Shown here piece after piece: positions 22,901 through 59,005 of a DNA stretch of 64,000 nucleotides. Within the stretch, counting starts at the first letter, position 1. Each line of letters opens with the position of its first letter. Below the pieces are notes generated by a model that saw only the letters and a program-made list of their open reading frames with translations, was not told where the DNA came from and ran no database searches. The stretch is from an uncultured Rikenellaceae bacterium. GTDB lineage: Bacteria > Bacteroidota > Bacteroidia > Bacteroidales > Tenuifilaceae. The position numbers were made by a program, and so were the translations under genes. The DNA is taken from contig CAYNHM010000023.1 of NCBI GenBank assembly GCA_964397135.1, positions 1,323 through 65,322 on the forward strand. Reading direction: 5' to 3'.

Positions 22901-23669
22901 TAACAGCATCAACCTCTTGTTGGAGCAAATCGTTGGGGAGTCTGTACTCGGGTATGCCGTAACGCAACCAGCCACCAGCGTAGGGTTGCGCCTCGTAAAT
23001 ATCGCATTGATGACCTTTCTGTTGAAGAAAGTATGCAGCGGAGAGTCCACCGGGACCAGCTCCAATAATTGCCACTTTTTTCCCTGTTGATGGAGCAATT
23101 TCAGGAATATAGTGTGTTTCAGAATCCAGATCAGCATCAGCAGCAAAGCGTTTCATGTAATCGATACCAACACCTGTGCCTTCGTCAAGAAGGTTACGCC
23201 TGCAAGCAACCTCACATGGGCGAACGCACACACGTCCACAAATTGCTGGAAGTGGATTGGTTTGCTTGATAACTTTTACAGCTTCGCTGTATAGTCCCTT
23301 TTCAATTAGTGAAATATAACCCTGTACATCAACACCAGCAGGACAACGTTCACGGCAGGGAGCAACGCAATCAGCGTAGTGGTTGCTCAAAATCAAATCC
23401 AATGCTGTTTTACGAGCCCTGTGAACACGTTCGTTATCAGTATTAATGGTCATACCTTCTGCTACTCTTGTTGAGCAAGATGGTTGAAGGTTTCGTTGCC
23501 CTTCAATCTCAACCACACAAAGGTAACAGGAAGAATAGGGCTCAAGGCGAGGATCATGACAAAGCGTTGGAATCTCAATACCTTGGCGTTTGGCGACTTC
23601 CAGGATGTACTCTCCCTTGTTTGCAGCTGTAGGTTTTCCGTTAAGAATTATATTGATTTTTTCACTCAT
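19989..23669 (-). CDS. Fusion oxidoreductase: [2Fe-2S] ferredoxin + GltD/NfnB-like NAD(P)H-FAD module + NuoG-type Fe-S clusters + degenerate molybdopterin (FdhA/NuoG-like) domain
   Basis: N-terminal C-x..-C-x2-C 2Fe2S; CRERCPAG...CGRVCVRPCE; GAGPGGL and GGGNTAMD dinucleotide folds; HPFIEIDNNKCILCSRCIRIC; CESCGLCLSACP; CTYCSVGC...C Mo-pterin-type 4Fe4S; LIQKFARAGVKTNNV block. Confidence 0.8.
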   Translation of the reverse strand: MSEKINIILNGKPTAANKGEYILEVAKRQGIEIPTLCHDPRLEPYSSCYLCVVEIEGQRNLQPSCSTRVAEGMTINTDNERVHRARKTALDLILSNHYADCVAPCRERCPAGVDVQGYISLIEKGLYSEAVKVIKQTNPLPAICGRVCVRPCEVACRRNLLDEGTGVGIDYMKRFAADADLDSETHYIPEIAPSTGKKVAIIGAGPGGLSAAYFLQQKGHQCDIYEAQPYAGGWLRYGIPEYRLPNDLLQQEVDAVTELGVNIFYNKKLGDNLSYKEISDNYDATILTIGSQRGALLGAVGEDAEGVFSGIDFLRNMEVTGQRYDFKGKKVAVVGGGNTAMDCCRTSIRCGSTDVTVVYRRTEKEMPANPIEIHESKLEGVKYMFLTAPVKVNKDELGKLKSLTVVEMELGEPDASGRRRPVAIEGSEKDLEFDYILAAIGQKTDINFLDDINTHAKGGYLKPNKWGDIAANPDTLQTDIPSVFAAGDGVTGPATIIEAIAQAKLASHCCHLFLNGQEVKPPKKEFLSKKDNFKTQESDDYLGRYQKQLREEMPVLETNKRNNFHEVELGYSEEQALHETSRCLECGCVAYFDCSLKEHADNYNADQQRFAGEHKEYQVNFNHPFIEIDNNKCILCSRCIRICKEIVGANALTLINRGFETYVAPSMGNDLNNTTCESCGLCLSACPTGALTENVPFKPGPVKMDSFETICTYCSVGCKLTFHHRGGFIMKVTGAEGMVNADGNLCMYGKFGYRIFNRTDRITKPLVKENGSYREITFEDAYKLMEEKIKTTEFSKNAFFAGARLTNEELYLIQKFARAGVKTNNVNSFHYLHGASNLANISTHNVPFEQIKKSSKVFLFGSEIDRYNPVVGYMINSAKVPFEVISTQNIPRLKRKARGFHHINSYFHFVQAVNHYILSNNLQNNLFINDNCEQFEEYKTNLLAKNYSELCKQACDCTGRCIEEFADRFNKELNAILIFSEREIDQQTAIEIRNLALITGKLGKTATGIIALKSKNNSQGIFDMGVRPSTGVGIQSISSKDFAEKLKEQWGVSTNPNPEKECFSERFYKADFQNIFIFGEDPVGCSDTSKKISGVLSKAEFIVVQDAFMTETAQMANLILPSSFWYETGGSFTNSQRFIQEFEAGLKPRVEKTSIVQLIDLLKLFGLNGLNDIDDVRNEAISLLPKNVSKSKHRFVTINEPGEIPLFSHGCDYIMEQFDKELEEFK

Positions 23670-23732: not shown

Positions 23733-25511
23733 TTACGAAATCTTTATGGCATCGAATTTACACCTGCTGTAGCAATCGCCACAACGGATGCAGATTTCTT
23801 GATTAATAAAATGTGGCATTTTCTTCTCTCCGGTAATAGCTTGAACCGGACATTTAATGGCACAAACCCGGCAACCCGTACACTTGGCTGGATCAATCTC
23901 GTATGTAAGCAGTGCCTTGCAGCTCAAAGCAGGACATTTTTTATCGTAAATATGTGCTTCATATTCATGCCTAAAATACTTTATGGTTGTAAGAACAGGG
24001 TTTGGGGCAGTTTGTCCTAATCCACAAAGGGAACTATCCTTAATCTGATGTGCCAATTCCTCAAGCTTTTCGATATCGCCCTCGACTCCTTTACCCAAAG
24101 TTATACGAGTAAGTATTTCTAGCATTCGCTTAGTGCCTATACGGCAGAAAGTGCACTTGCCACACGATTCTTTCTGGGTAAAATCGAGGAAAAATCTTGC
24201 AACATCCACCATGCAAGTGGTTTCGTCCATAACCACCATACCACCTGAACCCATTATGGCACCAGTAGCAGTTACCTTATCATAATCAATTTCAGTATCG
24301 ATAAGATGTTTTGGAATACAGCCACCTGATGGTCCTCCCATCTGAACGGCTTTAAATTCCTTATCGTTTTGAATTCCCCCTCCCAGACTATAAATAATCT
24401 CACGAATAGTCATACCCATGGGTACTTCAACCAAACCACCATGCTTGATTTTACCTGTTATGGCAAAAACCTTTGTTCCTTTGCTTTTTTCAGTACCATA
24501 TTTATTAAACGATTCGGCTCCACGGTAAATAATAAAGGGTATGTTGGCAAAAGTTTCAACGTTGTTTATATTTGAAGGTTTACGCCAAAGACCTGCTTCA
24601 GCAGGGAAAGGTGGACGTTTACGGGGCATTCCTCTTTCACCCTCAATGGATGCGATTAGGGCTGTCTCCTCACCACATACGAATGCGCCAGCTCCCTCTT
24701 TTACGTAAATATCAAGGTTCAAACCCTCAATTCCACAGATATTTATACCTAAGAAACCTGCTTTTCGTGCTTGTTCAAGCGCAATATTTAATCGCTTAAT
24801 AGCCAACGGATACTCAGCCCGACAGTAGATTACACCATGGTTTGCACCAATGGCGTAAGCGCCAATTATCATACCTTCCAACACGGAATGTGGATCTCCC
24901 TCAAGCAGCGAACGATCCATGAATGCACCCGGATCTCCCTCATCAGCATTACAAATAATGTATTTATCATCCGCTTTATTATTTCGGGCAAATCGCCATT
25001 TTAAGCCCGTTGAAAAACCACCACCTCCTCGTCCTCGAATACCAGAATCAAGAACTGTTTGTATTACTTCTTCAGGTGTTATTTTACTTTCAGCAATCTT
25101 TTTCAATGCTTTATAACCATCTCTTGCTTCGTATTCCTGCAAATTTTCAGGATCAATATAACCGCAATTGCGAAGTGCAATCTTTACCTGTCCCTGAAAA
25201 AAATTCTTGTCGGGGGTTTCAAAAAGATCAGTTTTTACCACATATTCTTTTATGGGATTATGCCCAATTATGTGGTTCTGAATTATTTCAACTGCTCTAT
25301 CCTCGGTTACATCACCATAGGTAAATGAACCTATATCGTCAACAACTTCAACAAGGGGTTCACGAAAGCACATGCCCACGCAGCTGGTTTTCTTTAGCTC
25401 AAAATCGAGCGTATCGGATTTTTGGAGCGCAAGTATCTTTTCATACACCTTACCAGCTCCAGCTGCTATACCGCAGCTTCCCAACCCGACTATAACCTTT
25501 GTTTTAGACAT
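23733..25511 (-). CDS. NuoF/HydB-like NADH-binding FMN flavoprotein, with an N-terminal thioredoxin-like 2Fe2S and a C-terminal 2x[4Fe-4S]
   Basis: GRGGGGFSTG FMN/NADH block, ESCGKCTFCR N3-cluster motif, and CTGCRVCAIKCP and CIRCGDCYSRC ferredoxin motifs. Confidence 0.9.
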   Translation of the reverse strand: MSKTKVIVGLGSCGIAAGAGKVYEKILALQKSDTLDFELKKTSCVGMCFREPLVEVVDDIGSFTYGDVTEDRAVEIIQNHIIGHNPIKEYVVKTDLFETPDKNFFQGQVKIALRNCGYIDPENLQEYEARDGYKALKKIAESKITPEEVIQTVLDSGIRGRGGGGFSTGLKWRFARNNKADDKYIICNADEGDPGAFMDRSLLEGDPHSVLEGMIIGAYAIGANHGVIYCRAEYPLAIKRLNIALEQARKAGFLGINICGIEGLNLDIYVKEGAGAFVCGEETALIASIEGERGMPRKRPPFPAEAGLWRKPSNINNVETFANIPFIIYRGAESFNKYGTEKSKGTKVFAITGKIKHGGLVEVPMGMTIREIIYSLGGGIQNDKEFKAVQMGGPSGGCIPKHLIDTEIDYDKVTATGAIMGSGGMVVMDETTCMVDVARFFLDFTQKESCGKCTFCRIGTKRMLEILTRITLGKGVEGDIEKLEELAHQIKDSSLCGLGQTAPNPVLTTIKYFRHEYEAHIYDKKCPALSCKALLTYEIDPAKCTGCRVCAIKCPVQAITGEKKMPHFINQEICIRCGDCYSRCKFDAIKIS

Positions 25512-25613: not shown

Positions 25614-26144
25614 TTAGGATTCAGTTTCTTTTATTTTAATATCCTTGATTACTTTCACTGCACTTGCTTTTGTAAGTTTTCCATGAGTTTCTTCTCCAAT
25701 CATCATAACTGGGGCGAGCGAACAGCATCCAAGACAAGCAACTGACTCGAGTGTAAATAGTTTATCGGGTGTGGTCTCCCCGTCCTTAACTCCAAGGGCT
25801 TCCTGAATAGCATCAGTTATGGAGTCGGCATTTTGAACGTGACATGCAGTGCCATGGCAAACCTTAATGATATGCTTGCCCGCAGGTACTAACCTAAATT
25901 GAGCATAGAAAGTTGCCACACCATACAAATCGCTAAGGCTAAGCCCTGTCTCATCCGAAATTTTTTTGAAAACATCAACAGGTATATAGCCATATATATT
26001 CTGAGCTCCCTGTAATAAAGGAATCAGACTTCCTTTCTTACCTTTAAACTTATCAATTAAAGGTAAAAGCAGATTTAGGTCGATATTATCAACGATCTGA
26101 TTATTATCATGCTTTGGTTTAATTCTTTGAATACGCATTGACAA
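25614..26144 (-). CDS. NuoE/HydC-like thioredoxin-fold [2Fe-2S] subunit
   Basis: CHGTAC ... CLGCCSLAP cluster motif. Size and position fit a location upstream of the NuoF-like gene. Confidence 0.9.
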   Translation of the reverse strand: MSMRIQRIKPKHDNNQIVDNIDLNLLLPLIDKFKGKKGSLIPLLQGAQNIYGYIPVDVFKKISDETGLSLSDLYGVATFYAQFRLVPAGKHIIKVCHGTACHVQNADSITDAIQEALGVKDGETTPDKLFTLESVACLGCCSLAPVMMIGEETHGKLTKASAVKVIKDIKIKETES

Positions 26145-26293: not shown

Positions 26294-27754
<1,461 letters not shown>

Positions 27755-27923: not shown

Positions 27924-30900
27924 ATGGGCAGCAGTTCATCGTCACAAGAGGACTTCTACAAGCTTCTTGCTGAAAGCAAGGAAAGGTTAAAAGAACTTTC
28001 TGCAATTAACCGAACAACTTCAATTATAAAAGAAGGTCGAACTGTTGAAGGCACACTTCGTCAAATATGTTTAATTCTTCCAGATGCATGGCAATTTCCT
28101 CAATTCACAGTTGCTCGTATTAAGTATCAAAAGATGGAGTTTACCTCTGTAGGTTTTGAAGAAACTCCCTGGGTTCAAATTCAAGAATTTTCTACTATCG
28201 ATGGTGAGAAGGGAAGTGTTGAAATATTCTATACTCGTGAATTTCCTGAAGAATATGAAGGACCTTTCCTGAAAGAGGAACGAGATTTAATTCAAAACTT
28301 AACTAATCTAATAGTTGGTTACCTTAACTCCATAAAAGGAAAAGACTTTGTAAAAGAGGTTAAAATTCCCAAAAAACCAGTTGAATCAGAAGGAGTTCAC
28401 ACCAGAAAAAGACTTTTACAGAAATTCATCAATCAGCATAATTCTGACCGTGATATCTATCACGATTTAATGCCATTTAAAGTAAAGGAAATATTACTTA
28501 TAGCAAATCTATACGATGCATACAATCTAGAAAAAGAGGATAGAGTAACCGATAACATACTTGGCGAATACTCAAAATTAAGTTTAACCAGTGTACCAAG
28601 AATAACGGGTGTATCAACGCTAGAGGAAGCGCTGGAAAAAATGGAGGAGAAGCATTTCAACATGGTTATCATCATGATGGGTGCTGATAGGGTCACGCCG
28701 TTGGAGGTGGCAAAACGGATTAAAGGCGAATATAACTACATCGCTTTATATCTTCTGGTTAATAACTCAGCCGTTCTTAACGAGATGGAGAAGAATCCTT
28801 TGACCTTAGAAAGCATTGATAAAGTGTTTGAATGGAATGGAGATCCAAAAATATTCTTCTCAATAATTAAACTTCTTGAGGATAAGGTAAACCTCGAAAA
28901 TGATACAAGAATAGGCCTTACAAGAATTATACTTCTAGTTGAGGATTCACCAAGGTACTATTCAAGATACCTACCTGTTCTCTACAGCAGCATCCTTGAA
29001 CAGACCAAGCGTATTATTGAGGACGTGAGCACCGATGATCTCTACAAAGTGCTTAGAATTAGAATTCGACCCAAGGTTTTACTAACCGGAAATTACGAGG
29101 AGGCCATTGAAATTTTCAAGCGATATAAGGATTTTATGCTCTGCGTAATTTCAGATGTTAAGTTTTTTCACAAAGGGAAACTTGACGAAAATGCTGGAAT
29201 TAACCTTATCACAGAAATCCGTAAAACACTGCCCAACTTACCAGTAATCATGCAATCGTATGAGCAAAGTAACGAATTCAAAGTTAAGCTGCTGAACGAA
29301 AAGTTTGCGGGCATACGCAACGAACCAATTTTTGAAGATTTAATCAATATCGCCTTTATCAATAAGAACTCTGACAGCTTAATGCAAGAACTTAAAAATT
29401 TTATTAGCAACTACTTAGGATTTGGCGATTTTGTATTCAAGGATGCAATCGGTCAACCCATTGCAACAGCTACCAGCATGGAAGAATTTGAAAAGATTCT
29501 TAGGGATATTCCTGGAGAAAGTATTCTTTACCATGCCGAGAAGAATCACTTCTCTCTTTGGCTTTCTGCCAGAGGGGAAATTAACGTTGCTCGTATCATT
29601 CACCCCTCTAGCATAAACGACTTCTCGGGTCCGGAAGAAATTAGAACTTACCTCCTTACTACTTTAAAGAAATACCGCCAAGAGCAACGCAAAGGTAAGA
29701 TTGTAAGCTTTGAAACGGCATGGGAAGTGGATTCAAGCAATATAGTTTCTTTAGCGGAAGGCTCAGTGGGAGGTAAAGGGCGGGGTATCTCTTTTATAAA
29801 CACTTTGCTTTATACTTTCGAGATTTCACAGTATGTTCCTAATATCAATCTCTACAGTCCAAGAACATCAATAATAGGTATCAACGAGTACGAATGCTTT
29901 ATGCAGCGTAATGGGTTGTACGAAAAGGTTTTTTCTGAAACTGACTACAATCGGATTATGCAGTATTTCCTTGAAGGAGAGCTATCCGATCAACTCATTA
30001 CCAGATTAGAAAGGCTCCTGCAAATATATTATCGTCCGTTAGCTATCCGTTCTTCTGGGTTACTGGAAGACTCACTCATGCAACCTTTTGCAGGCATATT
30101 CGAAACTTACCTGATACCAAATAACCACCCCGATCCCAAGGTACGCCTTAAACAAACAATGGATGCAATTAAGTTGGTTTATGCCTCCGTTTTTTCAGAT
30201 ACTGCTCGAGGGTACATAAAAGCTGTTAACTTCAAAATTGAAGACGAAAAGATGGCTGTGATAATTCAGGAAGTCGTGGGAAATAAATATGGTGATTACT
30301 ACTATCCGCATATTAGCGGTGTGGCTCAATCATACAACTATTATCCTTATGGTCATATTAAACCTGAGGATGGCTTTGCCACAGTTGCTCTAGGTTTGGG
30401 TAAATATGTAGTGGAAGGAGAAAAAGCGTTCCGATTCTGCCCCAAATATCCTACGTTAATGAACTATACCCCGGCAGATCTTGTTAAAAACTCACAAACC
30501 GAATTCTTTGCCATTGATCTTAAAAGACATGATATTAATCTGTTGACTGACGGTGATGTTGCTGGGTTGTCAAGGTTAAACCTCTTCGAAGCTGAAGAGC
30601 ATGGCACCATAAAGCACTGCGCTTCGGTTTACAATCCCGAAAACAATACCATTACACCTGGATTATCGCAGCCCGGATCAAGAGTTCTTAACTTTGCCAA
30701 CATTTTAAAATATAATTATATACCCCTTGCACAAACAATTCAGGTTGTTCTTGAAGTGGTTGAGGAAGCCCTTGGCTCACCCTGTGAAATTGAATTTGCT
30801 GTCGATTTAAATCGTGATATCAACTATAAGGCATCCTTTTTCTTACTGCAGATAAAACCCATGGTTGGCAATACAGAAGAGTATAAAATATTCCCTGAAA

Positions 30901-31424
30901 GCATAGATCATTCTAAAGTTATCTTAATTTCGTATAATGGCATGGGTAACGGACAGATTGAAAACATTTCTGATATTGTATACATCCGCAGAGAGAACTT
31001 TGACAAAGGGTTAACCCCTGATATGGCTCATGAAGTTGATCTGATTAACAGACAAATGATTGAAAAAGGTAGAAAATATGTGCTTATTGGCCCAGGCAGA
31101 TGGGGAACTCGCGATCGATGGATAGGAATTCCTGTTACGTGGCCACAGATATCCAATGCTAAACTTATTGTTGAAACCAGCTTCGAAGATTTTCCGCTTG
31201 ATGCCTCATCGGGATCACATTTCTTTCATAATGTTATTAGCATGAATGTTGGCTATTGTTCAATACAGGATGGTGATTTGAATTGTAGGATTGCTTGGGA
31301 CTCTCTCGATGAAATTCCTGCAGAAACAGAAACAAAATTTTTCCGACAAGTTCACTTCAAAGAACCTTTATCGGTTAAAATGGATGGAAAGAAAAGAATT
31401 GTGCTGGTAAGCACTGAAAAATAG
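27924..31424 (+). CDS. Signalling enzyme P1: N-terminal sensor-like module + degenerate receiver + receiver + PEP-synthase-type ATP-grasp (PPDK_N-like) + putative phosphohistidine swivel-like C-terminus. No PEP/pyruvate TIM-barrel domain.
   Basis: LLVEDSPRYYS...VISD (receiver); GSVGGKGRG; LAIRSSGLLEDSLMQPFAG; MAVIIQEVVG; EIEFAVDL...LLQIKP; LIGPGRWG...LIVET...SGSHFFHN. Confidence 0.7.
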   Translation: MGSSSSSQEDFYKLLAESKERLKELSAINRTTSIIKEGRTVEGTLRQICLILPDAWQFPQFTVARIKYQKMEFTSVGFEETPWVQIQEFSTIDGEKGSVEIFYTREFPEEYEGPFLKEERDLIQNLTNLIVGYLNSIKGKDFVKEVKIPKKPVESEGVHTRKRLLQKFINQHNSDRDIYHDLMPFKVKEILLIANLYDAYNLEKEDRVTDNILGEYSKLSLTSVPRITGVSTLEEALEKMEEKHFNMVIIMMGADRVTPLEVAKRIKGEYNYIALYLLVNNSAVLNEMEKNPLTLESIDKVFEWNGDPKIFFSIIKLLEDKVNLENDTRIGLTRIILLVEDSPRYYSRYLPVLYSSILEQTKRIIEDVSTDDLYKVLRIRIRPKVLLTGNYEEAIEIFKRYKDFMLCVISDVKFFHKGKLDENAGINLITEIRKTLPNLPVIMQSYEQSNEFKVKLLNEKFAGIRNEPIFEDLINIAFINKNSDSLMQELKNFISNYLGFGDFVFKDAIGQPIATATSMEEFEKILRDIPGESILYHAEKNHFSLWLSARGEINVARIIHPSSINDFSGPEEIRTYLLTTLKKYRQEQRKGKIVSFETAWEVDSSNIVSLAEGSVGGKGRGISFINTLLYTFEISQYVPNINLYSPRTSIIGINEYECFMQRNGLYEKVFSETDYNRIMQYFLEGELSDQLITRLERLLQIYYRPLAIRSSGLLEDSLMQPFAGIFETYLIPNNHPDPKVRLKQTMDAIKLVYASVFSDTARGYIKAVNFKIEDEKMAVIIQEVVGNKYGDYYYPHISGVAQSYNYYPYGHIKPEDGFATVALGLGKYVVEGEKAFRFCPKYPTLMNYTPADLVKNSQTEFFAIDLKRHDINLLTDGDVAGLSRLNLFEAEEHGTIKHCASVYNPENNTITPGLSQPGSRVLNFANILKYNYIPLAQTIQVVLEVVEEALGSPCEIEFAVDLNRDINYKASFFLLQIKPMVGNTEEYKIFPESIDHSKVILISYNGMGNGQIENISDIVYIRRENFDKGLTPDMAHEVDLINRQMIEKGRKYVLIGPGRWGTRDRWIGIPVTWPQISNAKLIVETSFEDFPLDASSGSHFFHNVISMNVGYCSIQDGDLNCRIAWDSLDEIPAETETKFFRQVHFKEPLSVKMDGKKRIVLVSTEK

Positions 31425-31536
31425 TTGAATTTGAATTGTGTAAGTAACATTGAGGTTGAAAAATTGAATGATTGCCCCGATGCATCGAGGGAATGAGTGA
31501 TAAGCTAATATTGAATTGAAATCTTCCAATCATTAA

Positions 31537-31566
31537 TAGTTTTGAGTCCTGTAGAATATAAATTTG
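31537..31566 (+). promoter_or_regulatory. Two candidate -7 promoter boxes (TAGTTTTG at 31537-31544, TAAATTTG at 31559-31566) for the second paralogue
   Basis: Both are exact TAnnTTTG matches, 74-96 nt upstream of the ATG at 31640. Confidence 0.3.
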
Positions 31567-31639
31567 ATGGTGAGTTTAAAACGTATTGCTGAATACTGCT
31601 TCGTTAATAAATTCTTTAATAAACAATTGAATTACTCTA

Positions 31640-34606
31640 ATGCTACCAAAATCAACAGATTCAAGCACAGGTAAGTACTACTTTGCAGAAACTGCTTTTG
31701 ATTTGCTAATGAAAAGACGGATATTAAACGTTCTGTTAATTTGTAGCAAGTACGATGCTTTTATGCTTGAAGAAGATGGTAGAATTGAGGAGCAAATTTT
31801 CAACGAATACGTTAACTTAAACCTACGATATCCCCCAAAATTTATCCATGTAACCTCTGCTGATGATGCTTTTGCAAAGATGAAAGAGCTATCCATTGAT
31901 CTTATTATCACCATGCTAAAAGTCGAGGGCATGGATCCTTTCAATCTTGCCAAAGAAATAAAATCCCTTTACCCACAAAAACCTATTGTTGTTTTAACCC
32001 CATTTTCCCGTGAAGTAACCCTTAAGCTAAGCCGAGAGGATCTAAGCGCCATTGACTACGTTTTTTCGTGGCTGGGAAATGCTCAAATTATGCTGGCCAT
32101 AATAAAGCTTATCGAAGACTCAATGAATGCTGAGCATGATGTGAACAAGGTAGGTGTTCAGGTAATCCTGCTTGTAGAAGACTCTGTTCGTTACTATTCA
32201 GCATATCTCCCAAATATCTATAGGATCATCTTTACTCAAAGCAAGCAGTTTATGTCTGAAGGTCTAAATGAACACCAGAAGATGCTTCGCATGAGAGGTA
32301 GACCAAAGATATTGCTTGCCCGAAACCTAGAACAAGCAGAAAAACTTTACCATAAATATAAGCATAATATGCTCGGTGTGATCACTGATATGAGCTATCC
32401 CCATAATGGGCAGATGGTACAACGTGCTGGTGTTAAACTGATTGAGCTAATAAAAACGGATAGCCCATTCATGCCTATTCTATTACAATCGTCAGATATA
32501 AATAACCAGCTTTTAGCCAAGCAACAAAAAGTTGGGTTTATCCACAAGTACTCTAAAACCTTATCGCTTGAACTGCACGACTTTATCATTAAGTATTTTG
32601 CCTTTGGTGATTTTGTTTTTATTGACCCAAACAGCAATCGAGAGATTTTTAGGGTTACCGATTTAAAATCGTTACAGGAAATAATATTTCAAATCCCAGA
32701 CGAATCATTAGCTTACCATATTGAACGGAATCATTTCTCTAAATGGTTAACAGCCAGAGCCCTATTTCCCATTGCTGATATATTTAAATACATAACTCCT
32801 GATGATTTTCAAAACCTCGAAGAGGTTCGAAGGTTTATATTTGACACAATTGATAGGTACCGTGAGAGTAAAGGAAGGGGTATAATCGCCAAATTCTACC
32901 GCGATAGCTACGATGAGTACCAAATATTCTCTCGAATTGGAGATGGGTCATTAGGGGGTAAAGGCAGGGGTTTAGCGTTTATTGATTCGGTTATAAAACG
33001 CAGCTACCTGATGCATCGGTTTGAGAACGTGGTAATTTCGATACCCCGTACAGTAGTAATATGTACTGACGTTTTCGATGAATTTATGGAGATTAACAAC
33101 CTTTACCCTATTGCCCTATCAGATGCAAGCAATGAAGAAATACTTCGCCATTTTCTTAATGCTCCACTGCCACTACGTATTCATAAAGATTTATATTCTT
33201 TCATTGCAGTGGTAAGAAATCCCATTGCCATTCGTTCTTCCAGTCTACTTGAAGATTCACATTTTCAACCATTTGCAGGTGTATACTCGACCTATATGGT
33301 TCCCAACGTAAAAGAGAGTGCACCACAAATGCTCGAACTAATGAGTCAAGCCATAAAGTGTGTATACGCTTCGGTTTACACCAAGGAAAGTAAAACATAC
33401 ATGCAAGCCACACAAAATGCAATAGAAGAAGAACGTATGGCAATTGTTTTACAAGAGGTTGTTGGATCAAAACATGACAATAGATACTACCCAAACATAT
33501 CTGGAGTAGCCCGTTCCATAAATTTTTATCCCATTTCTCCAGAAACTCCAAACGATGGAATCTCAAGTATTGCTCTTGGATTGGGTAAACATGTGGTTGA
33601 GGGAAAACCATCGCTAAGGTTTTCGCCCAAATACCCCAAAAAAATATTACAGCTCTCTTCTCCAGAAATGGCGATAAAAGAAACTCAAAAAACTTTCTTT
33701 GCCTTAGACCTTCAACCTACAAGCTTTATCCCATCAACCAATGATGCCATAAACCTTTTTGAGCTGGATGTGATGGAAGCTTTTAATGATGGTACTCTTT
33801 CCATTGCAGCTTCCACCTTCGATTTTGAAAATCAGCAAATTTATGATGGCTATAACGGTAGTGGCAAACCTGTAATCACATTTGATGCCATTCTCAAGCA
33901 TAAAAAATTTCCTTTACCTGAGATTCTTAAAGCTATTCTTGAGGTAGGACAACAGGAAATGAATAATCCAGTTGAAATTGAATTTGCTGTAAATCTTAAT
34001 ACTCCAGGCGATAAGCCAAATATGTTTGGTATGCTACAGATACGACCCATTGTTCAGAACCGGGAGATTATACATACCAACTTCGATAGCATCCCTCAAA
34101 AAGATATGCTTCTATTTTCAACTTCAGCCCTTGGGAATGGTGTAGTTAATAACTTATCGGATATTGTATACATAAAACCGGATAGTTTTGATCCATCAAA
34201 AACATATCAGATAGCAACCGAACTTGAAGAAATCAACGCTGAATTCATGAAAAAGGGAAAGGGTTACATTCTTATTGGTCCGGGTCGCTGGGGTTCCAGC
34301 GATAGTTGGCTTGGAATACCAGTAAAATGGCCTCAGATATCGGCTGCAAAAATTATTGTTGAAACCGCTTTGGAAAACTACAAAATTGATCCCAGCCAAG
34401 GAACTCATTTCTTTCAAAACCTTACCTCATTTAGCGTTGCCTACTTAACAATTAATCCATATCTTAATGAAGGTTTTATCGATAATAATTATCTTGCCTC
34501 TAAACAAGCCACATATGAAAGCGAAATGGTAAGACATATTAAATTTCCCTCTCCTCTTGAGGCAATTGTTAATGGACAGAAAAGAATGGGGGTTGTGCTT
34601 AAATGA
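31640..34606 (+). CDS. Signalling enzyme P2 (paralogue of P1): degenerate receiver + receiver + PEP-synthase-type ATP-grasp + putative swivel-like C-terminus
   Basis: Collinear with P1: LLVEDSVRYYS...VITD; GSLGGKGRG; IAIRSSSLLEDSHFQPFAG; MAIVLQEVVG; EIEFAVNL...MLQIRP; LIGPGRWG...IIVET...QGTHFFQN. Confidence 0.7.
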   Translation: MLPKSTDSSTGKYYFAETAFDLLMKRRILNVLLICSKYDAFMLEEDGRIEEQIFNEYVNLNLRYPPKFIHVTSADDAFAKMKELSIDLIITMLKVEGMDPFNLAKEIKSLYPQKPIVVLTPFSREVTLKLSREDLSAIDYVFSWLGNAQIMLAIIKLIEDSMNAEHDVNKVGVQVILLVEDSVRYYSAYLPNIYRIIFTQSKQFMSEGLNEHQKMLRMRGRPKILLARNLEQAEKLYHKYKHNMLGVITDMSYPHNGQMVQRAGVKLIELIKTDSPFMPILLQSSDINNQLLAKQQKVGFIHKYSKTLSLELHDFIIKYFAFGDFVFIDPNSNREIFRVTDLKSLQEIIFQIPDESLAYHIERNHFSKWLTARALFPIADIFKYITPDDFQNLEEVRRFIFDTIDRYRESKGRGIIAKFYRDSYDEYQIFSRIGDGSLGGKGRGLAFIDSVIKRSYLMHRFENVVISIPRTVVICTDVFDEFMEINNLYPIALSDASNEEILRHFLNAPLPLRIHKDLYSFIAVVRNPIAIRSSSLLEDSHFQPFAGVYSTYMVPNVKESAPQMLELMSQAIKCVYASVYTKESKTYMQATQNAIEEERMAIVLQEVVGSKHDNRYYPNISGVARSINFYPISPETPNDGISSIALGLGKHVVEGKPSLRFSPKYPKKILQLSSPEMAIKETQKTFFALDLQPTSFIPSTNDAINLFELDVMEAFNDGTLSIAASTFDFENQQIYDGYNGSGKPVITFDAILKHKKFPLPEILKAILEVGQQEMNNPVEIEFAVNLNTPGDKPNMFGMLQIRPIVQNREIIHTNFDSIPQKDMLLFSTSALGNGVVNNLSDIVYIKPDSFDPSKTYQIATELEEINAEFMKKGKGYILIGPGRWGSSDSWLGIPVKWPQISAAKIIVETALENYKIDPSQGTHFFQNLTSFSVAYLTINPYLNEGFIDNNYLASKQATYESEMVRHIKFPSPLEAIVNGQKRMGVVLK

Positions 34607-34656: not shown

Positions 34657-35025
34657 TTATGATAATACTTCTTCAACAGTTTTAACTATCTCTTTGATGT
34701 TAAATGGTTTACTAAAATATTTGTTTATCAATTTTTCATTTAATGCATTTGCTATCTCTTCGGTTATATCATAACCTGTTAGAATAAAGAAAACTATATG
34801 AGGATAATCTAGTTTAGCTTTTCTAATGAATTCGATGCCATTCATACCTGGCATTCTCATGTCGCTAATTACAATTGAGATATCAGGGTTTTCTTTAAGT
34901 TTTTGTAATCCTTCCATTCCTGAAGTTGCTGTTACTACATGATATATACCTTTAAAATTTAGCTCAAATAACATGAGGTTAACAGGCTCATCATCAACAT
35001 AGAGGATTTTAGTAGAGTTTTCCAT
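34657..35025 (-). CDS. Stand-alone CheY-like response regulator receiver
   Basis: Canonical DD (YVDDEP), phosphoacceptor ISDMRMPGMNG, LTG and KP motifs. No output domain. Confidence 0.85.
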   Translation of the reverse strand: MENSTKILYVDDEPVNLMLFELNFKGIYHVVTATSGMEGLQKLKENPDISIVISDMRMPGMNGIEFIRKAKLDYPHIVFFILTGYDITEEIANALNEKLINKYFSKPFNIKEIVKTVEEVLS

Positions 35026-35122: not shown

Positions 35123-35710
35123 TTAAATTTTTTCTTTTAGCAACATTAACACTTTTTTACCCTTTGCACGCAATGCGGGAGTTCCTATCTCCATTTGATT
35201 TTCTATTATATACGGGAGTTCTTGTGCAATCCATTTCTGACGTATGGATAGATGAAATAGAACGTCCATACAATGAGCTTTAATGGCCGGTTTACTCTTT
35301 TCGTCAACTAACCATTTAAAACAAATCTCTTCAAGCGGCTCTAAGTTTGTCTGCCAAAACTCACGATCAAAGACCTTTGATGTTTTTCTCTTCACGATTC
35401 TTTTAACTCCTATAGAAATTAGTTTTGTCAAGTGTCTTTGTACGCTATGATTTTTAGTTTTTGGAAGATTTTCTATAAGAGTAGGAAGGTAATAATCTAA
35501 TGCTTCAGGAGATTTAATAAACATATTTTCAAGAACCCAAGCTGAATGAAACCTAATTGACTGATCCCCATGTAAAGTCAGGGCAATTATTTCCTCAAAC
35601 TCTACACCTAAATCTGAAAAGGACTTTACCAATTGAAGGACTTCCTTTTTGGTCATGGAGTAGTTTAATCGTTCTAAAAGTTTTTCTTTATTTATGCCTG
35701 GTAAATACAC
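35123..35710 (-). CDS. Hypothetical all-helical (HEAT/ARM-like) protein
   Basis: Long ORF with helical-repeat character. The resemblance to DNA-alkylation-repair-type HEAT proteins is only an impression. Confidence 0.4.
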   Translation of the reverse strand: MYLPGINKEKLLERLNYSMTKKEVLQLVKSFSDLGVEFEEIIALTLHGDQSIRFHSAWVLENMFIKSPEALDYYLPTLIENLPKTKNHSVQRHLTKLISIGVKRIVKRKTSKVFDREFWQTNLEPLEEICFKWLVDEKSKPAIKAHCMDVLFHLSIRQKWIAQELPYIIENQMEIGTPALRAKGKKVLMLLKEKI

Positions 35711-35941
35711 TTGTGTTAATATTGGATTATAAAAAATCTATGCTAAATGTTCTTTTCAAATAATAGGTTGCTCTAAACAAATATAATAAAACTTTTTCTA
35801 GCATCAACACTAAAAAAATATTAATATTTTAACTATTTAATTACTAATAAAGTTGATATCTCTATGACATAAAAACCCCTTGTTTTATAAGGATTAACTG
35901 CAAATCATTACCTTTACATTTTGATAATTGAATCAACAGCA

Positions 35942-36637
35942 ATGGATTTATTAAGCTTTTTATTCTTAAAATACCCCTACACTCCAGAAAAATTAAAAAA
36001 AATGGTTTGTGGAGAAAAAAATGTTGCAATTATGCTTGATAATGGTAGCATAGGAGTATGCTCAACTTTATGCAACACCGTCGAATGTGCATTTAAAATT
36101 TTAGAAAATCCAGATTTCACAAACTATCATCACAGAATTATTATCAATGCCTGGGTAAATGCTTTTGCAAATAATAGCGTTACACCCTCTGGAACCAATG
36201 ATATTTTTGATGCTATTGACTTCACACGTTTCGAACATGTTGTAATGGTAGGCTATTTTGGTTCTTTATCCAAAAAATTAATGGACATTGGAATAAATTT
36301 ATCTGTTTTCGATCTCAATGAAGAAGACAAACCTGTTGAACCTCTAAAAAACCTAGCATCAGGAATTCAAAAAGCCGATGCAGTAATTCTAACAGCTACA
36401 AGTATATCAAACAACACATTCAATGAGCTAGTTGGTATTGTATCAACCAATTCAAAAGTTTTTATTCTGGGGCCATCCACTCCCTTGTCAACATTCATGT
36501 TCAGCAATCCTGTGATCAGTGGATTATTTGGTGCACGATTTGAGCCTTTCGATCATGAAGTTCTTCAAGCAATAGAACAAGGAGGTGGAACAAGATCATT
36601 TTTAGGAAGAATGCAAAAGATTTATATCTTGCGTTGA
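35942..36637 (+). CDS. DUF4213/DUF364 (putative heavy-metal chelation, Rossmann-like) protein
   Basis: Size, the VVMVGYFGSL...ADAVILTATSISNNT Rossmann-like block and its context upstream of a tungstate/molybdate transporter. ATG at 35942 preferred over the TTG at 35921. Confidence 0.6.
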   Translation: MDLLSFLFLKYPYTPEKLKKMVCGEKNVAIMLDNGSIGVCSTLCNTVECAFKILENPDFTNYHHRIIINAWVNAFANNSVTPSGTNDIFDAIDFTRFEHVVMVGYFGSLSKKLMDIGINLSVFDLNEEDKPVEPLKNLASGIQKADAVILTATSISNNTFNELVGIVSTNSKVFILGPSTPLSTFMFSNPVISGLFGARFEPFDHEVLQAIEQGGGTRSFLGRMQKIYILR

Positions 36638-36697
36638 AAAAGTATAAAAAGAAAAACTAACAATTAAACACTTTTACTAACATTTAAAAATACTAAC

Positions 36698-37075
36698 ATG
36701 GCTGGACGAAAAGGTAGCAAATACTACGATATTTTTCTCAAGCATAAAGTTTGGCTCGAAAATATTCATGGTCAAGACATTGTTGGTGGGGGAAAATTCG
36801 ATTTACTTTTATGTATTGACGAACTGGGTTCTCTTACTGCAGCGGCAGACAAATTGAGTATTAGCTATCGAAAAGCATGGGGTAATCTGCGTGAAATTGA
36901 ACAACGACTTGGTTTTACTATAGTTAACAAGCACAGAGGTGGTAAAGAAGGAGGTAATACCCAGCTAAATACCGAAGGTAAAAAGCTAATTGAGGCATAC
37001 AAAGTATTTTTAACCGAAATTGAAACCCTGATGCATGATGCGGCAAAGGCTTTTTGGGCAAAAGTGAATGATTGA
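36698..37075 (+). CDS. ModE-N-type winged-helix regulator (DNA-binding domain only, no Mop/TOBE domains)
   Basis: GSLTAAADKLSISYRKAWGNLREIEQRLGF...GGKEGGNTQLT is the ModE N-terminal HTH signature. The protein ends after ~125 aa. Confidence 0.7.
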   Translation: MAGRKGSKYYDIFLKHKVWLENIHGQDIVGGGKFDLLLCIDELGSLTAAADKLSISYRKAWGNLREIEQRLGFTIVNKHRGGKEGGNTQLNTEGKKLIEAYKVFLTEIETLMHDAAKAFWAKVND

Positions 37076-37212
37076 AAACGCTTTAAAGTGGAAGTAGGAA
37101 AATAAAAAAAACTTTTTCAATCCATTATCTTTAAAATTCTTATCTACTAATTCACAAAATATTTTTTTATTTCAATGCGTTGTGCTTTTTTTGCATAACG
37201 AAAATACTTGGT

Positions 37213-38181
37213 ATGAAAAAAAACTTATTGATCTCTCTGATTGCATTATCTTTTTCATTCTTTTCATGTAATTCTATTGATAAAAGGCAAAATACCCTGA
37301 CAATATTTCACGCTGGTAGTCTTTCGATGCCCATGAAGGCCATAGCAGACAGTTTTAAGTTGAAAAACCCAGGTGTAACTATTCGGCTCGAAGCGGCAGG
37401 GAGTGTTGAATGTGCTCGAAAAATAACTGAATTAAATCGCCAATGCGATATAATGGCCTCAGCCGATTACAAAATAATCGATGATCTGCTAATACCTGAT
37501 TACGCTGATTGGAACGTACTATTTTCAGGCAATGAAATGGCAATTGTGCACAACAAAAAATCTAGGTATGCCAATGAAATAAACAAAGACAACTGGTGTG
37601 ATATACTACTAAAACCTGAAGTAAACTATGGTCGAAGTGATCCCAATGCCGATCCCTGTGGTTACCGTACCTTGCTAGCTCTTCAACTTGCCGAGCGTTT
37701 TTACAGTAAACCCAATTTATTCAATGAAATTGCCCAAAAGGATAACCGCTTTGTACGACCTAAGGAGGTGGATCTAATTGCCCTATTAGAAACTGGCACC
37801 GTTGATTATATCTTTTTATATCGGTCAGTGGCAGTGCAACATGAGTTAGAATACCTAATCCTTCCCAATGAAATAAACCTTGGATCTCAACTTTTTTCTG
37901 ATGAATACTCGCACGTTCAAATTAAAATCAGAGGATCAGCCATGGGTGATACTCTACTGATTAGTGGTGAACCAATGATTTATGGGCTAACTATACCCAA
38001 AAATGCTCCAAACAGAAGACTTGCCGAAGAGTTTACAAGATTTTTCCTCCATCCTGAAAAAGGATTGAAAGTAATTGAACAGATGGGCATGCCTCCACTA
38101 AATCCCTTGATTATTAAAAATGAGAAAAGCATGGATGAAGTTCTTTTTAAACAAATATCAGGGATAAACGAATACGAATAG
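37213..38181 (+). CDS. Tungstate/molybdate ABC transporter substrate-binding lipoprotein (WtpA-like)
   Basis: Lipobox (SFFSC), then LTIFHAGSLSMPM...LEAAGSVECARKI...DIMASADY, typical of WtpA/ModA-class binding proteins. Confidence 0.7.
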   Translation: MKKNLLISLIALSFSFFSCNSIDKRQNTLTIFHAGSLSMPMKAIADSFKLKNPGVTIRLEAAGSVECARKITELNRQCDIMASADYKIIDDLLIPDYADWNVLFSGNEMAIVHNKKSRYANEINKDNWCDILLKPEVNYGRSDPNADPCGYRTLLALQLAERFYSKPNLFNEIAQKDNRFVRPKEVDLIALLETGTVDYIFLYRSVAVQHELEYLILPNEINLGSQLFSDEYSHVQIKIRGSAMGDTLLISGEPMIYGLTIPKNAPNRRLAEEFTRFFLHPEKGLKVIEQMGMPPLNPLIIKNEKSMDEVLFKQISGINEYE

Positions 38182-38227
38182 AGCTATAGTATAAGTTGCA
38201 AGGAATAAGTAAAACCATTTAAAGATA

Positions 38228-39010
38228 ATGCAAAAGTCATCCATAAAGCAATCCTTTACATTCTTAGGTGGTTTAGTGCTTCTTTTTATAGTAGCACCTC
38301 TGCTCGGAATGGTATTCGCTACTCCTCTCGCCACACTTTTCTCAACAGCCGGTGAGCTGGAGGTACAACAAAGCATTTGGCTAACAATATGGATTTCAAT
38401 GGCAACTACATTGGCTTTCTCCATTATGGCTATTCCGCTATCATACTTACTGGCAAGGTATAAGTTTCCAATGAAAAATATCGTACTTGGCATTATTGAT
38501 TTACCGATTGTTATTCCACATTCTGCAGCAGGTATTGCCCTACTTGGCTTCATCAGTCGGGATACTGTTATTGGAAAAATGGTAGGTGTGTTTGGGATAA
38601 ACCTGGTAGGAAGTCCTATTGCCATTGCTCTTGCCATGGCTTTTGTTAGCCTTCCTTTTTTGATCAATGCTGCGCGTGAAGGTTTTTCGTCAGTACCAGA
38701 AAGGCTGGAAAAAGCTGCTTTGCTCCTTGGAGCTTCACCCGCTAGGGTATTCTTCACCATTTCATTACCCTTAGCATGGCGAAGTATTGTTACGGGTTTG
38801 GTTATGATGTTTGCTAGAGGGATGAGTGAATTTGGGGCAGTGGTTATTGTTGCATATCACCCTATGGTTGCACCAGTTTTAATCTTCGACAGATTTAACG
38901 CCTTTGGCTTAAAGTATGCTCGTCCAGTAGCCTTGCTTTTCATTATGATTAGTCTGGTTGTTTTTATAACAATCAGATTGCTTGCCACAAAACGGAAGAA
39001 AGATGCTTAA
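38228..39010 (+). CDS. ABC transporter permease (WtpB/ModB-like)
   Basis: Six TM segments and the EAA-type loop (LEKAALLLGASPARVFFTISLP). Confidence 0.8.
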   Translation: MQKSSIKQSFTFLGGLVLLFIVAPLLGMVFATPLATLFSTAGELEVQQSIWLTIWISMATTLAFSIMAIPLSYLLARYKFPMKNIVLGIIDLPIVIPHSAAGIALLGFISRDTVIGKMVGVFGINLVGSPIAIALAMAFVSLPFLINAAREGFSSVPERLEKAALLLGASPARVFFTISLPLAWRSIVTGLVMMFARGMSEFGAVVIVAYHPMVAPVLIFDRFNAFGLKYARPVALLFIMISLVVFITIRLLATKRKKDA

Positions 39011-40061
39011 GCTAAAAAATATCTCGAAAAAATGGGAGTCGTTTTCCCTTAATAACATTACGCTAAACGTGAATAAGGGCGACTATTTCATTCTGCTGGG
39101 ACCATCAGGAGCAGGCAAATCACTGGTACTCGAAATTATTGCAGGATTAATAAAGCCTGATTCAGGAGAGATTACGCTTAATAACGCAAATATTACGGAA
39201 CTTAAAATTCAAGATCGAAACATTGGTCTGGTATTTCAGGATCTTGCGTTATTTCCACATCTTACAGTGCATCGCAATATTGGCTTTCCATTGTTTAGAA
39301 AAGGAATTCGAAAAAGAGAAGTAAACCGTAAAGTTATTGAGTTAGCCAGTAGTCTTTCCATTGGTCATCTGCTAAGGCGATTCACCCCAACCCTATCGGG
39401 TGGGGAACAGCAACGAGTTGCCCTTGCTCGCACCCTTGCTCTCGATCCTGCAATACTTCTACTGGATGAGCCACTATCATCGCTTGACGTTGAACGAAAA
39501 GTCGAAATCCGCAAAGTACTTCGAGATCTAAATCGAAAAGGGCAAACCATAGTTCATGTAACCCACGACTACGAAGAGGCAATTGCCCTTGGTAGTAGAA
39601 TAGCGGTTATGAATAATGGATCCATTGAACAATATGGAACTCCTCAAGAGGTTTTTAGCAAACCAACATCAACCTTCGTGGCAGGTTTTGGAGGTATTCG
39701 CAATTTTTTTCTAGCACATCTATCCTATTCAAAGGATTGCGAGCTGATGAAAGCTAAATTAAACGACAACCTATCAATTTATTTGTACTCAGAAGAAGAA
39801 GGGCATGGCTATATCACCTTTCCTGAGAATGGTGTTATTGTTTCGAATTCACCATCCAATTCAAGTGCCTTAAACTCTTTCTGTGGCATAGTAGTAGACT
39901 TATATCCGCATCGATTTGGATTTGAGGCTGTTGTTGAAATCGGAGTTAAGATTTTTGCTCTTGTTACCGGTGAATCGGTACAAAAACTTGAAATTTCCAT
40001 TGGAAAAGAGGTGTGGGTATCATTTAAGGCTAATAGCGTCAAATTTATTAAAAAGGAGTAA
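39003..40061 (+). CDS. ABC transporter ATP-binding protein with a C-terminal TOBE/Mop-like domain (WtpC/ModC-like)
   Basis: Walker A GPSGAGKS, signature LSGGEQQRV, Walker B LLLDEPLS, H-loop. ATG at 39003 overlaps the permease stop. Confidence 0.8.
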   Translation: MLKLKNISKKWESFSLNNITLNVNKGDYFILLGPSGAGKSLVLEIIAGLIKPDSGEITLNNANITELKIQDRNIGLVFQDLALFPHLTVHRNIGFPLFRKGIRKREVNRKVIELASSLSIGHLLRRFTPTLSGGEQQRVALARTLALDPAILLLDEPLSSLDVERKVEIRKVLRDLNRKGQTIVHVTHDYEEAIALGSRIAVMNNGSIEQYGTPQEVFSKPTSTFVAGFGGIRNFFLAHLSYSKDCELMKAKLNDNLSIYLYSEEEGHGYITFPENGVIVSNSPSNSSALNSFCGIVVDLYPHRFGFEAVVEIGVKIFALVTGESVQKLEISIGKEVWVSFKANSVKFIKKE

Positions 40062-40743: not shown

Positions 40744-40861
40744 CTTTGCCACTCCATAATTAATATTTCTGACTATTTGGCAGCAAATCATTACATGGCA
40801 TTGCGTTTGAAAGGTTCAAATCGCGAGATAAAATATGTTTAACCTTAAAAATTAAATAGCC

Positions 40862-58984: not shown

Positions 58985-59005
58985 AAGTCAAAACATTTCA
59001 TCACC

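Follow-up and report, generated by a model that had tools for sequence, protein, structure and literature searches.

Receiver-linked PPDK_N-type ATP-grasp proteins encoded beside glutamate dehydrogenase: possible regulators of the glutamate/2-oxoglutarate node

Two adjacent genes of an uncultured Rikenellaceae bacterium (Tenuifilaceae in the GTDB lineage), called P1 and P2 here, encode proteins in which tandem receiver folds precede an ATP-grasp domain of the PPDK_N superfamily and a C-terminal domain that carries an invariant histidine. They lie in a stretch of 64,000 nucleotides, referred to as the window, that covers positions 1,323 to 65,322 of contig CAYNHM010000023.1 (assembly GCA_964397135.1). 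The core formed by the ATP-grasp and C-terminal domains is present in at least six phyla, and its genes are repeatedly found next to a gene for glutamate dehydrogenase (GDH). The function of these proteins very probably concerns the glutamate/2-oxoglutarate node. A more specific reading, that they are ATP-dependent regulators of GDH or of this node, which probably work through phosphohistidine and are switched by aspartate phosphorylation, is given somewhat less than an even chance.

GDH is one of the main routes by which Bacteroidota, like many anaerobes, bring ammonium into biomass, and it joins carbon and nitrogen metabolism. Reversible inactivation of the Bacteroides fragilis enzyme in vivo was reportedly described in the 1980s, with no mechanism. 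In a passage of one article that cites work from 1987-1998, B. fragilis is credited with two GDHs that respond in opposite ways to nitrogen supply (PMC4539542). A signal-controlled, ATP-using enzyme encoded beside GDH in this many phyla is a candidate for the missing GDH regulator. If this is true, the PPDK_N dikinase superfamily gains a new histidine-carrier domain and a new response-regulator output, and thousands of database entries named "phosphoenolpyruvate synthase" or "PEP/pyruvate-binding protein" would be corrected.

Linkage to glutamate dehydrogenase

The NADP-specific GDH gene of the window (26294-27748, minus strand) and P1 point away from each other, 175 bp apart. Its product matches Pfam ELFV_dehydrog at 8.5e-93 and NCBIfam PRK09414 with 774 bits against a cutoff of 536. 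Open reading frames (ORFs) were called and clustered in 86 loci, of which 79 are species loci; flanks of ±10 kb were fetched, and many contigs are short. After the family itself, GDH was by far the commonest neighbor cluster in the 86 loci. Counted with no correction for phylogeny, and in a sample biased to Bacteroidota near P2, it was the immediate neighbor in 22 of the 79 species loci, a count that rises to 25 for a distance of up to two genes and to 30 for the full ±10 kb; it was also the immediate neighbor in all four informative loci from other phyla. The 30 adjacent pairs comprise 24 that are co-directional, with gaps of 17-333 bp, six that are divergent and none that is convergent. With one to three GDH genes in a genome of several thousand, adjacency by chance would be expected at about 0.1%. 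The recurrence of this arrangement in several phyla indicates that the family probably controls a central step of nitrogen metabolism. This linkage, the chief pointer to function, had gone unnoticed in the first reading.

At four loci of Flavobacteriia (L040, L043, L053 and L072) the family gene has a GDH gene on either side, the two being paralogues of a 447-residue and a 445-residue type. The two types are 57-62% identical, and the GDH of the window belongs to the 447-residue type.

Other recurrent immediate neighbors also fall within the glutamate/2-oxoglutarate node. A two-subunit 2-oxoacid:acceptor oxidoreductase is encoded directly upstream of the family gene in nine loci; its alpha subunit matches TIGR03710 with 649 bits, which assigns it to the 2-oxoacid class only. 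In some of these loci a gene of the Asp/Glu racemase family precedes the oxidoreductase, and in a Lentimicrobiaceae genome a glutaminase gene adjoins the family gene. An NAD(P)H module of NuoE-, NuoF- and GltD-NuoG-like proteins is found near family genes in the window, in Tenuifilum and at four other loci. In the window it stands behind the GDH gene on the minus strand, and consists of a NuoE-like protein (25614-26144), a NuoF-like protein (23733-25511) and a 1226-residue fusion (19989-23669) that joins a 2Fe-2S domain to a GltD-like NAD(P)H flavoprotein and to a NuoG/formate-dehydrogenase-like molybdopterin module. The same trio is directly beside family genes in Tenuifilum (L003) and at L018, L023, L026 and L029. 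One possibility is that this trio works for GDH as an NAD(P)H/ferredoxin redox module.

Two neighbors seen in gut Bacteroides were set aside. One is a metallophosphoesterase (cluster c26) with a lipoprotein-type signal, which at E 1e-3 shows no homology with the phosphoesterase found in the minimal operon described below. The other is a hybrid two-component protein that by eye has a Y_Y_Y-type sensor, an AraC-type end and surroundings like those of sugar utilization genes; it is probably unrelated.

Breadth of the family and the A and B proteins

At E <= 1e-3 the C-terminal domain retrieves 1702 representatives of clusters formed at 50% identity, 402 of them at E <= 1e-30; searches with P2 retrieved >8000 homologues. 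The minimal form of the family, a protein of about 580 residues termed A, consists of the ATP-grasp and C-terminal domains. Other forms have 710-815 residues, some with the linker or with one receiver detected by Pfam, about 1000 residues (P2-like), 1150-1580 residues with longer N-termini (P1-like), or 1520-1650 residues with two cores. The minimal form occurs in metagenome-assembled genomes (MAGs) labelled Terriglobales (Acidobacteriota), Latescibacterota, Zixibacteria, Eisenbacteria, Planctomycetota, Ignavibacteria and Bacteroidota. In a scan of species-representative genomes, the 79 best of at least 600 loci include cultured members of Bacteroides, Parabacteroides, Gillisia and Lutibacter. 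Databases carry these proteins as "PEP/pyruvate-binding domain-containing protein", "phosphoenolpyruvate synthase", "pyruvate, phosphate dikinase", "response regulator" or "hypothetical".

An operon in the order GDH, A (585 residues), B (about 1060 residues) was found in MAGs of Terriglobales, Zixibacteria, Eisenbacteria and Planctomycetota (the set L006, L088, L089, L090 and L091). Four of the five loci have no gap between the A and B genes, which adjoin or overlap, and in the Planctomycetota locus L090 the two are 88 nucleotides apart; the fifth A-B locus starts near a contig end, so that its upstream region falls outside the contig. A gene for a 286-residue metallophosphoesterase follows A and B on the opposite strand, in convergent orientation, and in the Eisenbacteria locus a third family member of 780 residues adjoins it. 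B proteins begin with a sensor-like domain and a helical region, continue with the PPDK_N ATP-grasp and the C-terminal domain (LIGPGRWG...FGTHFF), and end in a Pol-beta-type nucleotidyltransferase (NTP_transf_2, 1.5e-7). The proteins of 1520-1650 residues (P0251, P0268 and P0281) are fusions in which A occupies residues 1-585 and B extends from about residue 596 to the end, which is Rosetta-stone evidence for joint action of A and B. At one Bacteroidota locus a homologue of the metallophosphoesterase, 52% identical, is encoded directly upstream of a family gene that is followed by GDH.

The cores of P1 and P2 share 35-42% identity with A proteins but 27-29% with B proteins. Both are thus of the A type, and the tandem is a duplication within Bacteroidota rather than an orthologue of A plus B. 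The original prediction, made from the letters of the window, had raised the conservation of the tandem across Bacteroidota; this proved not to be general, since P1 and P2 stand together in 12 of the 79 loci. Tenuifilum thalassicum has the GDH/P1 pair with no adjacent P2. P1 and P2 probably work together, in parallel with A and B, which in other phyla are encoded side by side and sometimes fused.

The openly accessible literature, with subscription-only papers outside the search, yielded no paper on the family, the C-terminal domain, a receiver joined to a PPDK_N output or the linkage to GDH, and a paper on nitrogen in Prevotella ruminicola makes no mention of such a gene. The earlier remark that this architecture has no assigned function agrees with the lack of any experimental paper in that openly searchable literature. 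BT1971 and BT1972, considered as possible homologues, were discarded, because BT1971 is a catalase.

Organization of P1 and P2

P1 (27924-31424, plus strand, 1166 residues) consists of an N-terminal sensor-like domain, a pseudo-receiver, a receiver, a linker, the PPDK_N ATP-grasp and the C-terminal histidine domain; P2 (31640-34606, plus strand, 988 residues) has the same layout from the pseudo-receiver onward. The first reading had described them as adjacent, same-strand, collinear paralogues of these lengths. Both ORFs were recovered at exactly these coordinates, and BLASTP aligned the proteins over 985 residues with 38% identity (E = 0). Relative to P2, P1 has an extra N-terminal stretch of about 180 residues. 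The motifs that had been picked out by eye are all present and collinear: LLVEDS at residue 337 of P1 and 177 of P2, FGDFVF at 500 and 322, GGKGRG at 616 and 439, AIRSS at 707 and 530, QEVVG at 782 and 605, EIEFAV at 955 and 779, LIGPGRWG at 1054 and 878, IVET at 1082 and 906, and HFF at 1099 and 923. The four codons singled out with them were also read correctly, 29154-29156 (GAT) as Asp411 of P1, 32387-32389 (GAT) as Asp250 of P2, 31218-31220 (CAT) as His1099 of P1 and 34406-34408 (CAT) as His923 of P2.

An AlphaFold model of full-length P2, built from an alignment of 75 sequences, had a mean predicted local distance difference test score (pLDDT) of 83.6 and a predicted template modeling score (pTM) of 0.58. 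It predicts five units: two (beta-alpha)5 domains, the linker, the ATP-grasp and an alpha/beta C-terminal domain. P1 is 100% identical to the public protein P0121. The nearest named relatives of both proteins are in Tenuifilaceae, and P1 is 68% identical to a protein of T. thalassicum.

A scan for sigma-70 promoters and terminators between 26 and 36 kb found no terminator-like site on the plus strand between P1 and P2; its counts were not above shuffled expectation, and Bacteroidota promoters lie outside its sigma-70 models. A role in anti-phage defense was considered and dropped, as PADLOC gave no match for P1, P2 or A.

The ATP-grasp domain

The ATP-grasp occupies residues ~607-979 of P1 (29742-30860, plus strand) and 430-803 of P2 (32927-34048, plus strand). 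Pfam PPDK_N (PF01326) matches residues 614-985 of P1 at E 1.1e-35 and residues 437-809 of P2 at E 1.2e-39, and both matches exceed the gathering score. The alignment of 75 sequences shows little or no variation in the GGK, RSS..ED..PFAG, QE, EIEFA and LQ.(K/R)P columns, and these blocks align with the same blocks of Escherichia coli PpsA. With the P2 model as a Foldseek query, the top two matches in the PDB were rifampin phosphotransferase (RPH; 5hv1, E 2e-11) and HpeI (9goj, E 8e-10), the ATP-grasp subunit of a hydroxyphenylethanone dikinase; pyruvate, phosphate dikinase (PPDK; 1ggo) was matched at E 1e-4. The domain is thus a member of the PPDK_N superfamily, as was first proposed. An alignment of its sequence shows that it retains the residues for nucleotide binding and catalysis of PpsA, PPDK and rifampin phosphotransferase. 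To our knowledge, every characterized PPDK_N enzyme, including PpsA, PPDK, glucan water dikinase, RPH, phenylphosphate synthase and their relatives, transfers the beta-phosphate of ATP to a histidine and then to an acceptor.

The similarity to PpsA and PPDK consists of the homologous ATP-grasp, with its GGK, RSS..ED..FAG and E.E...Q.RP blocks, followed by a small domain with a conserved histidine. P1 and P2 differ in that they lack the phosphoenolpyruvate (PEP)/pyruvate domain and that their C-terminus is not a recognizable swivel domain. Both proteins end about 165-190 residues after the ATP-grasp, and Pfam gave no match to the PEP/pyruvate TIM barrel (PF02896) in either at E <= 1, in keeping with the earlier observation that this domain is missing. 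NCBIfam models for PEP synthase and PPDK scored 15-55 bits against cutoffs of 598-1063. Since the two defining domains were tested for and are absent, P1 and P2 fall outside both the PpsA/PPDK and the RPH families. That they are genuine PEP synthases or pyruvate, phosphate dikinases, as the source names "phosphoenolpyruvate synthase" and "pyruvate, phosphate dikinase" would have it, is hardly credible, given that neither a PEP/pyruvate nor a swivel domain was found and that the NCBIfam scores fall far under the cutoffs.

A closer parallel is offered by RPH of Listeria (5hv1) and by the two-subunit dikinases of phenols and hydroxyphenylethanone (HpeHI, 9goj; AcvAB; phenylphosphate synthase), which like P1 and P2 have a PPDK_N-type ATP-grasp without the PEP/pyruvate TIM barrel, and in which, as presumably in P1 and P2, ATP loads a histidine. 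These enzymes have a PF00391 swivel histidine domain, either within the same chain or on a partner subunit, whereas none is detectable in P1 and P2 or in neighboring genes. They also have a substrate-binding domain. P1 and P2 have fused receivers, a sensor domain in P1, and a histidine in a domain with no detectable relatives.

This parallel raises the possibility that the family consists of small-molecule dikinases akin to RPH, HpeHI, AcvAB or flavonoid phosphate synthetase, in which a phosphohistidine formed from ATP would be passed to a hydroxyl or enol group of a metabolite of the node, with GDH left unmodified. Such an enzyme would either serve metabolism or produce a signal molecule. The two nearest solved ATP-grasps (5hv1 and 9goj) speak for it, as do partial NCBIfam matches, far below threshold, to PigC/RedH, PEP synthases and rifamycin phosphotransferase at their ATP-binding ends, and an operon with GDH and the 2-oxoacid oxidoreductase would fit a common substrate pool. 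However, there is no recognizable substrate-binding domain besides the C-terminal domain of ~165 residues, and no known pathway requires such a product. The receivers, the sensor domain, the nucleotidyltransferase of B, the paired phosphoesterase and the association with both types of GDH are more what one would expect of enzyme regulation than of a pathway step, and a small-molecule dikinase is considered unlikely.

The C-terminal domain and its histidine

The C-terminal domain extends over residues ~999-1163 of P1 (30918-31412, plus strand), which align with residues 823-987 of P2 (34106-34600, plus strand), and is specific to the family. Its LIG.GRWG, E and S.G.H.F.N columns are invariant. 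The original prediction had pointed to a conserved histidine in the G(S/T)HFF motif, His1099 in P1 and His923 in P2, and this residue is invariant in 74-75 sequences from three clades. His923 is the sole invariant histidine, with His966 conserved at >= 90%. An AlphaFold model of residues 800-988 of P2, based on 74 sequences from the three clades (pLDDT 90.1, pTM 0.89), places His923 after the conserved loop, at the start of a helix formed by residues 922-930.

The same prediction took the last ~150 residues to be a divergent PEP-utilizer swivel domain, which would make P1 and P2 truncated dikinases of the PpsA/PPDK type by homology. There are parallels by eye with residues 358-470 of PpsA, with which the domain appears collinear: a hairpin, ALGNGVV..IVYI against IGAGPVKVI; the strands YILIG against VLVTD and IIVET against AIVTN; a loop of small residues, S-x-G-(T/S)-H, that leads into a helix; and a closing v.vDG..g.v hairpin. 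The location directly after the ATP-grasp is also as in PpsA. However, every objective test was negative. PF00391 gave no match in whole P1 or P2 at E <= 1, nor in 31 isolated C-terminal domains at E <= 10, and a profile of these 31 domains searched against PDB sequences returned no PpsA, PPDK or Enzyme I chain. A swivel profile was built from seven members, namely E. coli PpsA, Enzyme I and the PDB chains 2ols, 8a8e, 9dae, 2e28 and 5fbs; HH-align of the C-terminal profile against it gave a probability of 0.2%, and HH-align against PpsA alone lent no support either. A hidden Markov model (HMM) of the swivel, applied with filters off to 105 family proteins and about 960 neighboring ORFs, gave nothing below E = 0.17 and matched no family member at E <= 10, compared with 8e-54 for the PpsA control. 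The canonical swivel histidine domain was thus not found in P1, P2 or the neighboring ORFs of the 86 loci, a screen of 1066 ORFs. Foldseek of the model of residues 800-988 against the PDB returned nothing at E <= 1e-3; the best match had E 0.042 and a template modeling (TM) score of 0.24, and the 50 matches listed included none to a PPDK, PpsA, Enzyme I or RPH entry. Neither sequence nor structure comparison detected a relative of the domain. With the by-eye parallel alone left, swivel homology is an unproven lead rather than a finding, and the reading of P1 and P2 as truncated dikinases built on it is an improbable one.

The conservation of the histidine and the analogy with other PPDK_N enzymes suggest that His923 and His1099 could be phosphocarriers, for which the chances are judged nearly even. 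The proteins might instead be nucleotide-sensing allosteric regulators, in which binding or hydrolysis of ATP or AMP serves as an energy signal that acts on GDH or a partner with no histidine phosphotransfer. The GDH linkage fits such a role equally well, and there is a precedent in the GDH of Thermus, which is regulated by a nucleotide-binding homologue of adenine phosphoribosyltransferase. Strict conservation across phyla of the catalytic, not merely the binding, residues of the ATP-grasp, together with the histidine loop, nevertheless makes this quite unlikely, and the phosphoesterase partner in the minimal operon argues for chemistry.

Receivers, linker and sensor-like domain

The second of the two receiver folds covers residues ~335-497 of P1 (28926-29414, plus strand), with Asp411 as acceptor and a Pfam Response_reg match at 384-459, and residues 175-319 of P2 (32162-32596, plus strand), with Asp250 as acceptor and a (beta-alpha)5 fold in the model. 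It had been described as an intact-looking receiver with an insertion of about 25 residues after beta-1/alpha-1, and both parts of this description hold. The five signature residues, E180, D181, D250, S284 and K303 in P2 numbering, are kept in 53 of 53 proteins (35 P2-like and 18 P1-like). AlphaFold predicts a long alpha-1 (183-205), an extra helix before beta-2 (211-218) and a beta-hairpin after the acceptor strand (253-260). Because of these insertions the Response_reg score is near or below the Pfam cutoff; with the P2 model as query, Foldseek matched receiver structures with TM scores of 0.6-0.78, normalized to the target.

The first fold is a pseudo-receiver (P1 residues ~189-330, 28488-28913; P2 residues 30-171, 31727-32152; both on the plus strand, and aligned with each other). 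At the acceptor position P1 has VIIMMG (residue 248) and P2 has LIITML (residue 88), with T91-M92 on beta-3. The column holds I, L or M and then M in the 18 P1-like proteins, and T or S and then M in the 35 P2-like proteins, which bears out the earlier report that the acceptor aspartate is missing and that Met or Thr-Met stands in its place. The acidic pair of beta-1 is also replaced throughout this alignment. In the AlphaFold model the P2 domain has a (beta-alpha)5 fold, and receiver structures were matched by Foldseek.

P1 and P2 qualify as response regulators with an enzymatic output. The whole P2 model matched the tandem-receiver regulator PleD at E 1.6e-6. As in PleD, two successive receiver folds, one phosphorylatable and one degenerate, precede an enzymatic output; in P1 and P2, by contrast, the order is reversed, with the pseudo-receiver first, the output is an ATP-grasp instead of GGDEF, and the true receiver has the insertion of about 25 residues at alpha-1 and the hairpin after the acceptor aspartate.

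An intact receiver fused to the core suggests a further reading, an ATP-grasp phosphorelay in which the phosphohistidine would donate to the aspartate of its own or a partner receiver, or to a stand-alone receiver, so that the protein would act as an unconventional histidine kinase. It is known from Enzyme I that PPDK-type histidine domains can phosphorylate proteins, a receiver of this kind is encoded nearby at 34657-35025, and no histidine kinase is. Most phyla, however, have the core without a receiver, which marks the receivers as a late regulatory addition, and the phosphorelay is accordingly a very unlikely reading. The stand-alone receiver (122 residues, minus strand, convergent with P2) was rejected as a partner, since it is not conserved at other family loci; nor is the 195-residue ORF without family assignment that comes after it (35123-35710, minus strand).

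The linker covers residues ~503-589 of P1 (29430-29690, plus strand; FGDFVF...NHFS.WL.AR) and 325-411 of P2 (32612-32872, plus strand), where it is modeled as a beta-hairpin and five helices with pLDDT 84-92. Pfam DUF5752 (PF19027) matches it over part of the profile, at E 0.0042 in P1 (residues 503-601) and E 9.6e-4 in P2; the scores are 16.9 bits for P1, 19.0 for P2 and 25.3 for the relative P0161, against a cutoff of 23.

The N-terminal sensor-like domain of P1 (residues ~9-140, 27948-28343, plus strand) belongs to no Pfam family, and neither it nor the linker has a solved relative by sequence. The first ~135 residues of P1 are homologous to the N-terminal domain of B proteins from other phyla (E 1e-10 to 4e-19), one of which has a weak GAF match (E 0.043), and to the N-terminus of a Crp/FNR-type regulator encoded at family loci (E 8e-14). 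By homology, then, one sensor-like module is joined to three kinds of output at GDH loci. The Crp/FNR-type regulator has 383 residues, with cNMP_binding and HTH_Crp_2 domains after an N-terminal sensor-like domain of ~140 residues; its gene lies between the family gene and GDH at L038 (10574-11725) and L056 (10574-11725), and adjoins the family gene at L019 (2045-3166).

Proposed mechanism

The preferred reading, of an ATP-dependent regulator of GDH or the glutamate/2-oxoglutarate node, can be set out as follows. The output of P1 and P2 would be an ancient two-domain core, the ATP-grasp and the C-terminal histidine domain, genomically coupled to GDH. ATP would be used to phosphorylate His923 in P2 and His1099 in P1, with the C-terminal domain taking the place of the canonical swivel domain. 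The phosphoryl group, or an ATP-driven state, may then act on GDH or another component of the node and change its activity post-translationally, as the gene context suggests. In Bacteroidota, phosphorylation of Asp250 or Asp411 in the intact receiver would gate the core; receiver and pseudo-receiver may cooperate as in PleD-type tandem receivers, perhaps by dimerization, and the N-terminal sensor-like domain would provide an additional gate in P1.

Several observations weigh against this reading. GDH was not in the fetched flanks of about 60% of the Bacteroidota loci, including most of those from gut Bacteroides. The C-terminal domain has no similarity to any phosphohistidine domain that sequence, profile or Foldseek searches could detect. 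The window has no histidine kinase gene within about 10 kb of P1 and P2, and none is conserved at related loci. P1 and P2 gave no Pfam match to the Pol-beta-type nucleotidyltransferase (GS...D.D) that ends B, nor was a metallophosphoesterase gene seen in their surroundings, so that the Bacteroidota version may work differently. Gene context, moreover, fits GDH as target, a small-molecule substrate and a purely allosteric role alike, and it is doubtful that GDH is the direct target.

A context-only likeness exists to switches that covalently modify central enzymes of nitrogen and carbon metabolism, namely GlnE/GlnD (glutamine synthetase and PII), AceK (isocitrate dehydrogenase) and PknG-GarA/OdhI (2-oxoglutarate node): the genes are encoded with a target-like enzyme, here GDH, and sensor or receiver domains are attached. 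In other phyla the core is also accompanied by a Pol-beta-type nucleotidyltransferase and a phosphoesterase, reminiscent of GlnE/GlnD. Unlike those systems, the core has no homology to GlnE/GlnD, AceK or PknG-GarA/OdhI, P1 and P2 lack the nucleotidyltransferase, and modification of GDH is a prediction. The most far-reaching form of the preferred reading is that the core represents an unrecognized class of phosphohistidine enzyme, with a carrier that has no detectable relation to the swivel domain in sequence or fold, which covalently modifies GDH or a partner at the node across many phyla in the manner of GlnE or AceK, under two-component control in Bacteroidota and with A plus B, a nucleotidyltransferase and a phosphoesterase elsewhere. 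In so complete a form it is rather unlikely. As far as their sequences go, P1 and P2 appear to be PPDK_N phosphotransferases with a new carrier-like domain and new regulation, and there is a real chance that a system-level function as a covalent GDH switch would be new.

Other genes of the window

Downstream of P2, at 35921-40061 (plus strand), are genes for a DUF364 protein, a 125-residue LysR-type helix-turn-helix protein that can be read as ModE-like, and an ATP-binding cassette importer (SBP_bac_11, permease and TOBE ATPase). This looks like a cluster for molybdate uptake, which would fit the molybdopterin enzyme encoded upstream. It is followed on the plus strand (40204-42928) by a 179-residue receiver-domain protein encoded directly upstream of an HSP90/HtpG-like gene (688 residues). 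A 678-residue protein with dCache_1, HAMP and GAF domains and no recognized output domain is encoded at 2187-4223 on the minus strand. The plus-strand genes at 52248-63142, for a GH20 hexosaminidase with chitobiase domains, an alpha-L-fucosidase with a PA14 insert, a second GH20 enzyme, a DUF4838 protein and a GH35 beta-galactosidase, look like a cluster for the utilization of host glycans or N-glycans.

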